A DNA stretch of 30,609 bases from a virus (lineage: Duplodnaviria > Heunggongvirae > Uroviricota > Caudoviricetes). Shown piece after piece: positions 4,814 through 5,135 of the stretch; within the stretch, counting starts at the first letter, position 1, and each line of letters opens with the position of its first letter. Made by a program: the position numbers and the translations under genes. The notes beneath the pieces were generated by a model. That model made no database searches, had not been told where the DNA came from, and saw nothing but the letters and a program-made list of their open reading frames with translations. The stretch is taken from the IMG/VR virus record IMGVR_UViG_2529292886_000008. One strand, written 5' to 3'.

Positions 4814-5135
4814 GAAACCAGAACATGCACACACAAAAAAACCGCTTGCCATGCCGCAATCGGTCAGGTTACATTTCCGCTGCACCTCATAAAACGGGTG
4901 CCGGGATTCTCAACCCGATACAGAGCAAAGCGCATAACCGCGCTAGCGGTTTTTTTGTGCGTACTGTATTGCCACGTCTTTTTCGCGTCAGAATTATGGC
5001 GGGGCGTACGGGGCCGACTTCGGTCGGGCCGGATTCTTTGCTCTCCGGTGTTGAGAACCCTGTACGTCTCGCCACCCCGAGATTCTCAACTCTGGATGGT
5101 GAGTTATTTCTATCACCGAGCAAAGAGGCCACACC
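4814..5135. other. GC-rich structured non-coding block with dispersed repeats and hairpins
   Basis: No convincing ORF (three mutually overlapping low-quality frames). GATTCTCAAC at 4905-4914 and 5081-5090; inverted GTTGAGAA at 5051-5058; GGATTCT at 4904-4910 and 5031-5037; stem-loop with UUCG-type loop at 5011-5030. Confidence 0.35.
4937..4956 (+). terminator. Rho-independent terminator-like hairpin plus T-run
   Basis: ACCGC-GCTA-GCGGT stem-loop followed by TTTTTTT, about 120 nt downstream of the 4514-4813 gene. Confidence 0.4.

Follow-up and report, generated by a model that had tools for sequence, protein, structure and literature searches.

A probable IsrK-C4 antisense RNA control cassette in the early operon of an Sp13/P88-type P2-like prophage

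The early operon of the P2-like prophage analyzed here (the window, a stretch of 30,609 nucleotides; IMG/VR record IMGVR_UViG_2529292886_000008) contains a block at positions 4814-5135 that, in all likelihood, is an IsrK-C4 antisense RNA control cassette. The prophage itself is of the Sp13/P88 type. The block comprises two RNA genes with covarying structures and six short elements (a1, b1, b', a', a2 and b2) that show three-way complementarity and change in a coordinated manner among related phages, and the last of these elements, b2, overlaps the Shine-Dalgarno (SD) sequence of the epsilon-like gene downstream. An earlier reading of the block from its letters alone (hereinafter, the sequence-only reading) had offered three possibilities, namely, that the block encodes a small RNA, that it acts as a leader or attenuator of the genes that follow, or that it is an array of sites bound by a phage DNA-binding protein. 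The first two both proved to be right, with two RNAs of curated families, isrK and C4, that both score over the gathering threshold and together make up a leader controlling the next gene. The third is not supported, given that the repeats behave as RNA pairing partners, with the complementarity maintained across relatives.

Two structured RNAs between protein-coding genes

The Rfam scan covered the whole window and produced two adjacent plus-strand matches in the block (plus strand is implied for all coordinates below unless indicated otherwise). Both matches are full-length and exceed the gathering score. The first match, at 4882-4956, is an IsrK-type leader RNA, the equivalent of seqA and c4-a1b1 (RF01394, 63 bits against the gathering score of 50). 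It consists, in this order, of hairpin 1, hairpin 2 with the a1 target site in its loop (GGATTCTCAAC, 4904-4914), the b1 target site (AGAGCAAAG, 4922-4930) and a Rho-independent terminator (4936-4956; AACCGC-GCUA-GCGGUU followed by U7). The minimum free energy (MFE) fold of this RNA has a z-score of -2.7, and its stems show covariation. The terminator-like hairpin with a run of seven T had been recognized in the sequence-only reading, and the terminator scan places its stem at 4936-4951 and the end of the T-run at 4956.

A putative isrK promoter is located at 4846-4875, with a -35 hexamer TTGCCA at 4846, an 18-nucleotide (nt) spacer and a -10 hexamer TACATT at 4870, and the transcription start predicted from it, around 4882, coincides with the 5' end of the isrK match. 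Related phage loci have sigma-70-like hexamers (TTGAC or TTGAT, a spacer of 17-18 nt and TAnAnT) equally far from the 5' end of isrK, and the activity of PisrK has been demonstrated experimentally in the Salmonella prophage Gifsy-1 (PMC4825925). Another sigma-70-like site, just before C4 (4969-4997; TTGCCA, 17 nt, AATTAT), was considered and is probably fortuitous, because its -10 hexamer coincides with the conserved C4 leader AAUUAU, transcription from it would start within the C4 closing stem, and its -35 hexamer belongs to 11 nt of inserted spacer that have no counterpart in the lambdoid, N15 and Yersinia loci.

The second Rfam match, which begins 35 nt after the isrK match, is a C4 (CI-type) antisense RNA at 4992-5079 (RF01695, 78.5 bits against the gathering score of 45, E = 5e-14, model positions 1-87 of 87). 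Its closing stem of 17 bp, formed by 4997-5013 and 5058-5074, surrounds both hairpin 1, capped by UUCG, and hairpin 2, and is followed by CCC. The GC-rich stem with a UUCG loop that was evident to the sequence-only reading is hairpin 1 of C4 (CCGAC-UUCG-GUCGG, approximately 5013-5026), as indicated by both the Rfam match and the fold. The 12-nt loop of hairpin 2 holds the recognition sequence b' (UCUUUGCUCU, 5035-5044; the complement, TCTTTGCTCT, of b1 and b2), and the single-stranded junction that connects hairpin 2 to the closing stem holds the recognition segment a' (GUUGAGAACCC, 5050-5060). Folded alone, C4 adopts exactly the structure of the family, with an MFE of -47.6 kcal/mol and z = -4.9. 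The CC that follows the acceptor-like stem corresponds to invariant alignment columns. A scan of the window for tRNA and transfer-messenger RNA (tmRNA) genes gave no match, and therefore C4 resembles a tRNA only in outline.

Downstream of C4 lie two more target sites. The a2 site (5081-5096) has the core TTCTCAAC at 5083-5090; its part at 5081-5090 is located just 3' of C4, and the pairing can be extended to 5096. The b2 site (GAGCAAAGA, 5118-5126) runs into the SD sequence AAGAGG (5123-5128) of the gene that starts with the ATG at 5136, and is located just 5' of the SD sequence in every relative examined. In the window, a1 and a2 are each an 8-nt perfect complement of a', and b1 and b2 are each a 9-nt perfect complement of b'.

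These pairing partners account for the repeats that had been spotted in the letters of the block. The direct repeat GATTCTCAAC has exactly two copies in the 30.6-kb window, at 4905-4914 and 5081-5090, and its inverted partial copy is real as well, its reverse complement being contained in 5050-5060, that is, in the a' segment of C4. The heptamer GGATTCT, reported as occurring three times, occurs only twice (4904 and 5031); it is GATTCT that has three copies. The repeats are in excess over chance expectation, given that the 8-mer TTCTCAAC has three copies, all within the same 190 bp, compared with 0.84 expected in the whole window, and that a second repeat set that had escaped notice, GAGCAAAG, has three of its five window copies inside the block (1.28 expected).

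Covariation and specificity types among related phages

The order of the two RNA genes is the same throughout the related phages. In all 13 phage loci obtained from BLAST hits, which include P88, 569R5, P88_4B11, Shiga toxin (Stx) and other lambdoid phages, N15, Salmonella phages and a Yersinia phage, isrK is followed by C4 with a spacing of 24-35 nt, and the same holds for 16 of 16 further P88-like loci tested (29 of the 29 scanned). Comparative alignment revealed covariation both within the helices and between the recognition and target sites. For the internal helices, in 11 diverse phage loci, 93.5% of the alignment cells are paired compared with 84% in shuffled alignments and 37-46% in slid ones, and 18 pairs are changed on both sides, a number reached by none of the 500 shuffles. 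The 17 pairs of the C4 closing stem are 100% paired, with seven changed on both sides, and in C4 hairpin 1, four of the five pairs are changed on both sides.

The specificity elements can be compared on a much more uniform background in 87 P88-like loci (the window and our loci L001, L007, L008 and L016-L098), in which the epsilon-like protein is 89-100% identical to that of the window and which were compared over the region equivalent to 4882-5135. The RNA scaffolds in these loci are nearly invariant, and the variation is concentrated in the six a and b elements together with short stretches around a2 and b2. On these near-identical backbones, there are at least 12 combinations of the b' loop and the a' junction; the P88-type C4, for example, has CUGUAGUUG as b' and UGUGGAAA as a'. 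In 10 of the 12 combinations, b1 and b2 as well as a1 and a2 are perfect complements over 7-10 nt, whereas the remaining two combinations retain the b pairing via a G-U wobble, with one mismatch in b2. When pairing is counted with one representative per type (13 P88-like specificity types), 95.0% of the cells are paired between a'/b' and a2/b2, compared with 69% in shuffles and 40-48% in slid alignments, and 57 cells are doubly changed against 19 (0 of 500 shuffles). For the pairing of a'/b' with a1/b1, 96.4% of the cells are paired and 59 are doubly changed. The a and b types assort independently even though the elements are interleaved (a1 b1 ... b' a' ... a2 b2). Swapping a single a or b type would require several coordinated changes. 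An exact 25-mer scan of IMG/VR for the a'/b' type of the window retrieved 39 contigs and gave no sign of sharing across families, because the epsilon-like gene follows in all 38 contigs with enough downstream sequence.

One more conserved segment, GAUGGUGAG (5095-5103), lies between a2 and b2 and is able to form a helix with 5068-5076, on the 3' side of the C4 closing stem. In this helix, 93.9% of the cells are paired compared with 32-58% in slid alignments, and four pairs are changed on both sides. The covariation suggests an alternative fold of the unprocessed transcript, in which this helix and the C4 closing stem are mutually exclusive.

The epsilon-like gene

The gene whose SD sequence is overlapped by b2 (5136-5366) encodes a 76-amino acid (aa) epsilon-like 'derepression' protein (Pfam PF25738, 31.9 bits against the gathering score of 27; phrog_3688, E = 2e-45). 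In a BLASTP comparison, it shows 32% identity to P4 epsilon over 50 aa (E = 6e-9), and PGAP names the product 'derepression protein'. On the other side, the block is bounded by a gene at 4514-4813 (phrog_4144, E = 4e-62), so both flanking genes are well supported, as the sequence-only reading maintained. A scan of genome contigs with the epsilon-like protein of the window found only three loci. The presence of a P4 epsilon-like gene in prophage Sp13 was noted by Asadulghani et al. (PMC2669165), in whose view the gene might account for the inducibility of Sp13 with mitomycin C despite a repressor without the peptidase (cleavage) motif.

Proposed mechanism

The proposed mechanism draws on the characterized homologues P1/P7 c4, P4 CI and N15 CB and on two published descriptions, those of IsrK in Gifsy-1 (PMC4825925) and of the 'IsrK-C4 immunity system' (PMC3632133). 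IsrK has been described as a structural homologue of P4 SeqA, with the processed RNA STnc1160 encoded downstream of it (PMC4825925). By homology with these systems, the promoter at 4846-4875 would drive the synthesis of IsrK up to the terminator, yielding an RNA of about 75 nt, whereas read-through transcripts and those that start at the upstream early promoter would carry the tRNA-like C4 precursor, from which C4 would be excised by RNase P. The mature C4, approximately 78 nt long, would then pair through a' and b' with a2 and b2, cover the ribosome-binding site and prevent the production of the epsilon-like protein; by polarity, it might also lower the expression of orf121 and of the replication gene A. 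The a1 and b1 sites of IsrK are predicted to function as decoys that capture either C4 itself or the C4 region within the long transcript, and so relieve the repression. The a and b sequences would set the specificity of the interaction and hence the immunity type at the RNA level. For this copy of C4, both excision by RNase P and repression in trans are extrapolated from the characterized homologues.

Several points weigh against this scheme or parts of it. The putative isrK promoter matches the consensus at only 9 of 12 positions. The Gifsy-1 experiments have been interpreted in another way, with IsrK acting directly on the long transcript and 'orf45' translated from an AUG at the 5' edge of C4 (PMC4825925), and constitutive expression of STnc1160 failed to counteract the toxicity of IsrK (PMC4825925). 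This makes the decoy step uncertain. As far as the sequence goes, the main effect of the cassette could be translational, as in P1, on termination, as in P4, or a cis switch opened by IsrK, as in Gifsy-1. Finally, the epsilon-like proteins of the window phage and P88 are 95% identical (5136-5366 compared with 5282-5512 of L001), and the immunity repressors of the two phages, of 134 aa (1587-1991, minus strand) and 93 aa (L001, 1170-1451, minus strand), respectively, show no detectable similarity. This comparison casts doubt on a role of the epsilon-like protein as an antirepressor directed specifically against the repressor of its own phage.

Alternative readings

Two alternatives concern the very nature of the block, and both are at odds with the pattern of variation among the relatives. 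The block could be protein-coding, given that a 205-aa open reading frame (ORF) at 4825-5442 is mechanically open across it and has been annotated as a gene in some records, for example, as ECs_2630 'antirepressor protein' in the Sakai genome, as an 'Ash family protein' and as gp51 of P88_4B11. The ORF is open in 83 of the 87 related loci, with an ATG 1-12 nt past the upstream stop and, at its end, an ATGA shared with the next gene, and produces, as its sole Pfam match, a weak one to Phage_ASH (PF10554, 18.6 bits, below the gathering score of 26). Nevertheless, it is rejected as a gene on codon-position statistics. Its polymorphic sites are evenly distributed over the codon positions outside the epsilon gene (29/34/27). 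The ORF overlaps the entire Pfam-supported epsilon gene in another frame, and in this overlap, the polymorphic sites are in excess at third codon positions of the epsilon reading frame (9/8/14). Moreover, the variable stretches of the block track the RNA complementarity, and the ORF is interrupted in three loci and cannot be read to a stop in a fourth. The statement of the sequence-only reading that the block lacks a credible ORF is, therefore, sound in substance, there being no coding signature, and incorrect to the letter, the ORF being open; likewise, the relatives have no conserved protein gene here, only an ORF that stays open in most of them without a coding pattern of substitutions. The Phage_ASH match itself apparently reflects the conservation of the RNAs because P4, N15 and lambdoid phages likewise give matches to the profile when their isrK-C4 loci are conceptually translated. 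These matches are located at 8168-8584 of L015 (minus strand), 1146-2297 of L004, 1458-2120 of L009 and 1518-1808 of L006. The profile scores well on the obsolete P4 'cI gene product' ORF, N15 gp32 and the N-terminal extensions of lambdoid Rha antirepressor annotations; 'Ash family' proteins, the ECs_2630 'antirepressor' and the N-extended Rha annotations over the isrK-C4 locus are thus probably translated RNA genes. We treat the ORF as non-coding, with a small residual doubt, a coding function being highly improbable. Even less credible is an array of operators for an early phage helix-turn-helix (HTH) protein, of which one could think because a MarR-type winged HTH gene is located just upstream (4251-4517) and the repeats are spread across some 220 bp. 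They lie within members of two structured RNA families, and the copies in C4 are reverse complements of the flanking copies and change together with them across relatives. What is conserved is the complementarity rather than the sequence identity, and the pairs kept as G-U wobbles, among them those in L087 and L096, would be mismatches in a repeated DNA site. In addition, the repeats change between phages with nearly identical neighboring proteins. This pattern of covariation is what would be predicted for RNA-RNA recognition under selection for specificity and, as far as alignments can tell, it excludes a DNA operator array.

The other two alternatives accept the cassette and differ in its mode of action. 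As in P4, C4 could be mainly a termination factor, such that its pairing with a1/b1 and a2/b2 of the nascent RNA would cause a premature Rho-dependent stop before the epsilon-like gene, orf121 and gene A; the cassette would then chiefly be an immunity determinant for replication rather than a switch that acts on epsilon translation. In P4, too, isrK and C4 precede epsilon and alpha, P4 CI has been described as a termination factor (PMC4825925, PMC3632133), and gene A of the window is merely 730 nt downstream in the same operon. The direct overlap of b2 with the SD sequence, however, is the arrangement of P1, and between C4 and gene A, terminator-like sites on the plus strand occur at the chance level only, so that this mode appears possible and yet, on balance, unlikely. 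It does not preclude the translational mode because the translational block in P1 causes polarity. Following Gifsy-1, for which mutational and native-gel data are available (PMC4825925), the long transcript could instead be silent in cis, through pairing of a1/b1 with a'/b', and activated in trans by the short IsrK via helix displacement, with the processed C4 not being a repressor at all. This scenario is in keeping with the complementarity of a1/b1 to a'/b', which equals that of a2/b2, and with the conserved alternative helix between the 3' strand of C4 and 5095-5103. It leaves unexplained the covariation of a2/b2 with a'/b' and the position of b2 on the SD sequence. Furthermore, activation in Gifsy-1 requires translation of orf45 and its coupling to anrP, whereas in the window, the frame from the equivalent AUG (4996) is 149 codons long and crosses the epsilon gene in a different frame, and the epsilon gene has an SD sequence of its own. 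Accordingly, we rate a Gifsy-1-type switch as rather improbable.

The upstream inverted repeat

The P88-like loci share an additional element, a 21-nt inverted repeat, the left arm of which (4829-4849) is complementary in 19 of 21 positions to the right arm (4942-4962). The right arm consists of the 3' half of the IsrK terminator, the U-tract and the next 6 nt, and the A7 tract of the left arm occupies positions -46 to -40 of the putative isrK promoter. The repeat is kept in all P88-like loci despite five different upstream junctions, and is absent from the lambdoid, N15 and P4 loci compared. In equilibrium folding, transcripts that begin upstream form the repeat helix instead of the terminator (P ~0.98-1.0), and transcripts that begin at 4882 form the terminator. 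A role as an anti-terminator, favorable as it looks at equilibrium, was nevertheless set aside because the left arm pairs with the 3' half of the terminator, not with the 5' half, and so is kinetically unable to pre-empt it. The repeat could be a promoter-dependent bypass of the terminator, an RNase III site, a by-product of an UP-element A-tract or a terminator for the minus strand.

Relationship to known antisense RNA systems

The cassette is the same device as the immI a1b1-c4-a2b2 locus of P1 and P7, the seqA-CI-seqC locus of P4, the CB RNA locus of N15 and the IsrK-STnc1160 locus of Gifsy-1. In P1 and P7, immI has the order P51, a1 b1, c4, a2 b2, icd, ant; c4 is a tRNA-like, processed antisense RNA, b2 is located on the ribosome-binding site of the first downstream gene, and the specificity sequences differ between heteroimmune relatives. 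RF01695 is the Rfam family that is based on c4. The architecture of the window is identical, with a' and b' matching a1/b1 upstream and a2/b2 downstream, and with b2 on the ribosome-binding site, but the controlled gene encodes an epsilon-type protein of 76 aa rather than icd-ant, and a domain search detected no Ant, KilA or Rha domain downstream of the window cassette. Thus, the cassette works like immI without being an immI orthologue.

Satellite P4 has isrK (60.8 bits; 8615-8692, minus strand) and C4, that is, the CI RNA (74.9 bits; 8420-8507, minus strand), in the same order and on the same strand as each other, followed in the same operon by a gene of the epsilon family (7888-8175) and then by the replication gene alpha. 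The Rfam family RF03163 (c4-a1b1) matches P4 over the isrK region with 44.1 bits, just below the threshold of 46.7. The differences are that P4 epsilon is located about 245 nt after CI, with small reading frames in between, compared with 57 nt between the C4 match and the epsilon-like start in the window, where b2 is on the epsilon SD sequence; that the replication gene of the window encodes a P2 gpA-type nickase (Phage_GPA) and that of P4 the alpha primase; and that the window element is a helper-type P2-like phage and P4 a satellite. The a' and b' sequences of the two differ as well.

Gifsy-1 of Salmonella (IsrK, orf45/STnc1160, AnrP) similarly has an isrK member with its own promoter (a putative one in the window) and terminator, followed by a C4-type RNA, and the regulated product is again an anti- or derepression factor; transcription that reads through the IsrK terminator supplies the RNA encoded further downstream (PMC4825925). 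Unlike the window element, Gifsy-1 is a lambdoid phage with a Rha/Ant-type antirepressor as the target, and its orf45 coupling does not fit the reading frames of the window. The anti-immunity locus of N15 (CB RNA, genes 32-30) has isrK at 1401-1476 and C4 at 1502-1589 (L006), with an a' identical to that of the window (GTTGAGAA). The b' loop and the downstream genes (gp32 to gp30) are different, and N15 is a linear plasmid prophage.

The pairing of IsrK with C4 in P4 and lambdoid prophages has already been described (PMC3632133, PMC4825925, PMC2864571). Our literature search found no small RNA described in Sp13 and no IsrK-C4 cassette described for P2-like phages of the P88/Sp13 type. The RefSeq record does not annotate either RNA gene; in the Sakai and phage records, the doubtful ORF, labeled 'antirepressor' or hypothetical, covers them instead. 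The device has long been known from P1 c4 and P4 CI and is curated in Rfam, and its general interest is, therefore, modest. Modest novelty lies in three features, namely, a helper-type phage in which the device is coupled directly to an epsilon-type gene, the count of specificity types carried by nearly identical backbones, and the P88-specific inverted repeat.

Genomic setting

The window corresponds to a P2-like prophage of the Sp13 type that resides, intact, in E. coli O157:H7. Several genomes of E. coli O157:H7 contain prophages that match its segment 3600-6000 with 100% identity, and in PV15-279, the one O157:H7 genome fetched, the prophage adjoins yecA. The closest named phages are Escherichia phage P88 and other members of Xuanwuvirus (Peduoviridae). 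Because of the O157:H7 identity and the difference of a single base, at 5075, between 4814-5141 and prophage Sp13 of O157 Sakai, the comparison identifies the window prophage as an intact relative of Sp13, which is truncated by an insertion sequence.

Protein family matches identify the 134-aa product of the gene at 1587-1991 as a divergently encoded HTH repressor, and the MarR-type winged HTH gene upstream of the block was assigned by a domain match. The early operon runs rightward, through the epsilon-like gene and orf121 (phrog_3237, unknown function) to gene A for the P2 gpA-type replication nickase (5811-8633; Pfam Phage_GPA, 438 bits), with which it ends, and is followed by ParM-type partition genes. 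NCBIfam provides no name for the epsilon-like protein, orf121, orf99 or gpA. The ParM-type segregation ATPase and a partition protein (8710-9988) are encoded directly 3' of gene A, a hint at a plasmid-like maintenance option.

Two observations pertain to the distal part of the window. The Rfam IS009 match at 26717-26915 (191 bits) falls entirely within the ORF 26368-26952, which encodes a tail-fibre assembly protein (Pfam Caudo_TAP, E = 7e-40), so that this 'RNA' is probably coding sequence. Immediately upstream, between a long ORF of the tail-fibre region (23307-25466) and the tail-fibre assembly gene, there is a gene for a 300-aa Macro-domain protein (25463-26365; Pfam Macro, E = 8e-19), an unusual passenger at this location.

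Implications

The cassette is positioned directly upstream of the epsilon-like gene and is an obvious control point for this gene in Sp13. The hypervariable recognition sequences, matched three ways, predict that cross-immunity among P88-like prophages follows the a/b type. At a far more speculative level, Sp13/P88-type phages might possess a second, RNA-based layer of immunity that gates the epsilon-like protein and, by polarity, gene A, with the a and b modules defining heteroimmunity groups under diversifying selection. Within the same conjecture, the epsilon-like protein would perhaps target other resident P2-like prophages or satellites, and the inverted repeat would perhaps provide for terminator bypass, or for processing around the terminator, in transcripts from the early promoter, whereas transcripts from the isrK promoter, which lack the left arm, would terminate. 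If this long shot turned out to be correct, the targeting of other prophages or satellites by the epsilon-like protein would amount to a conflict between helper and satellite or between prophages.

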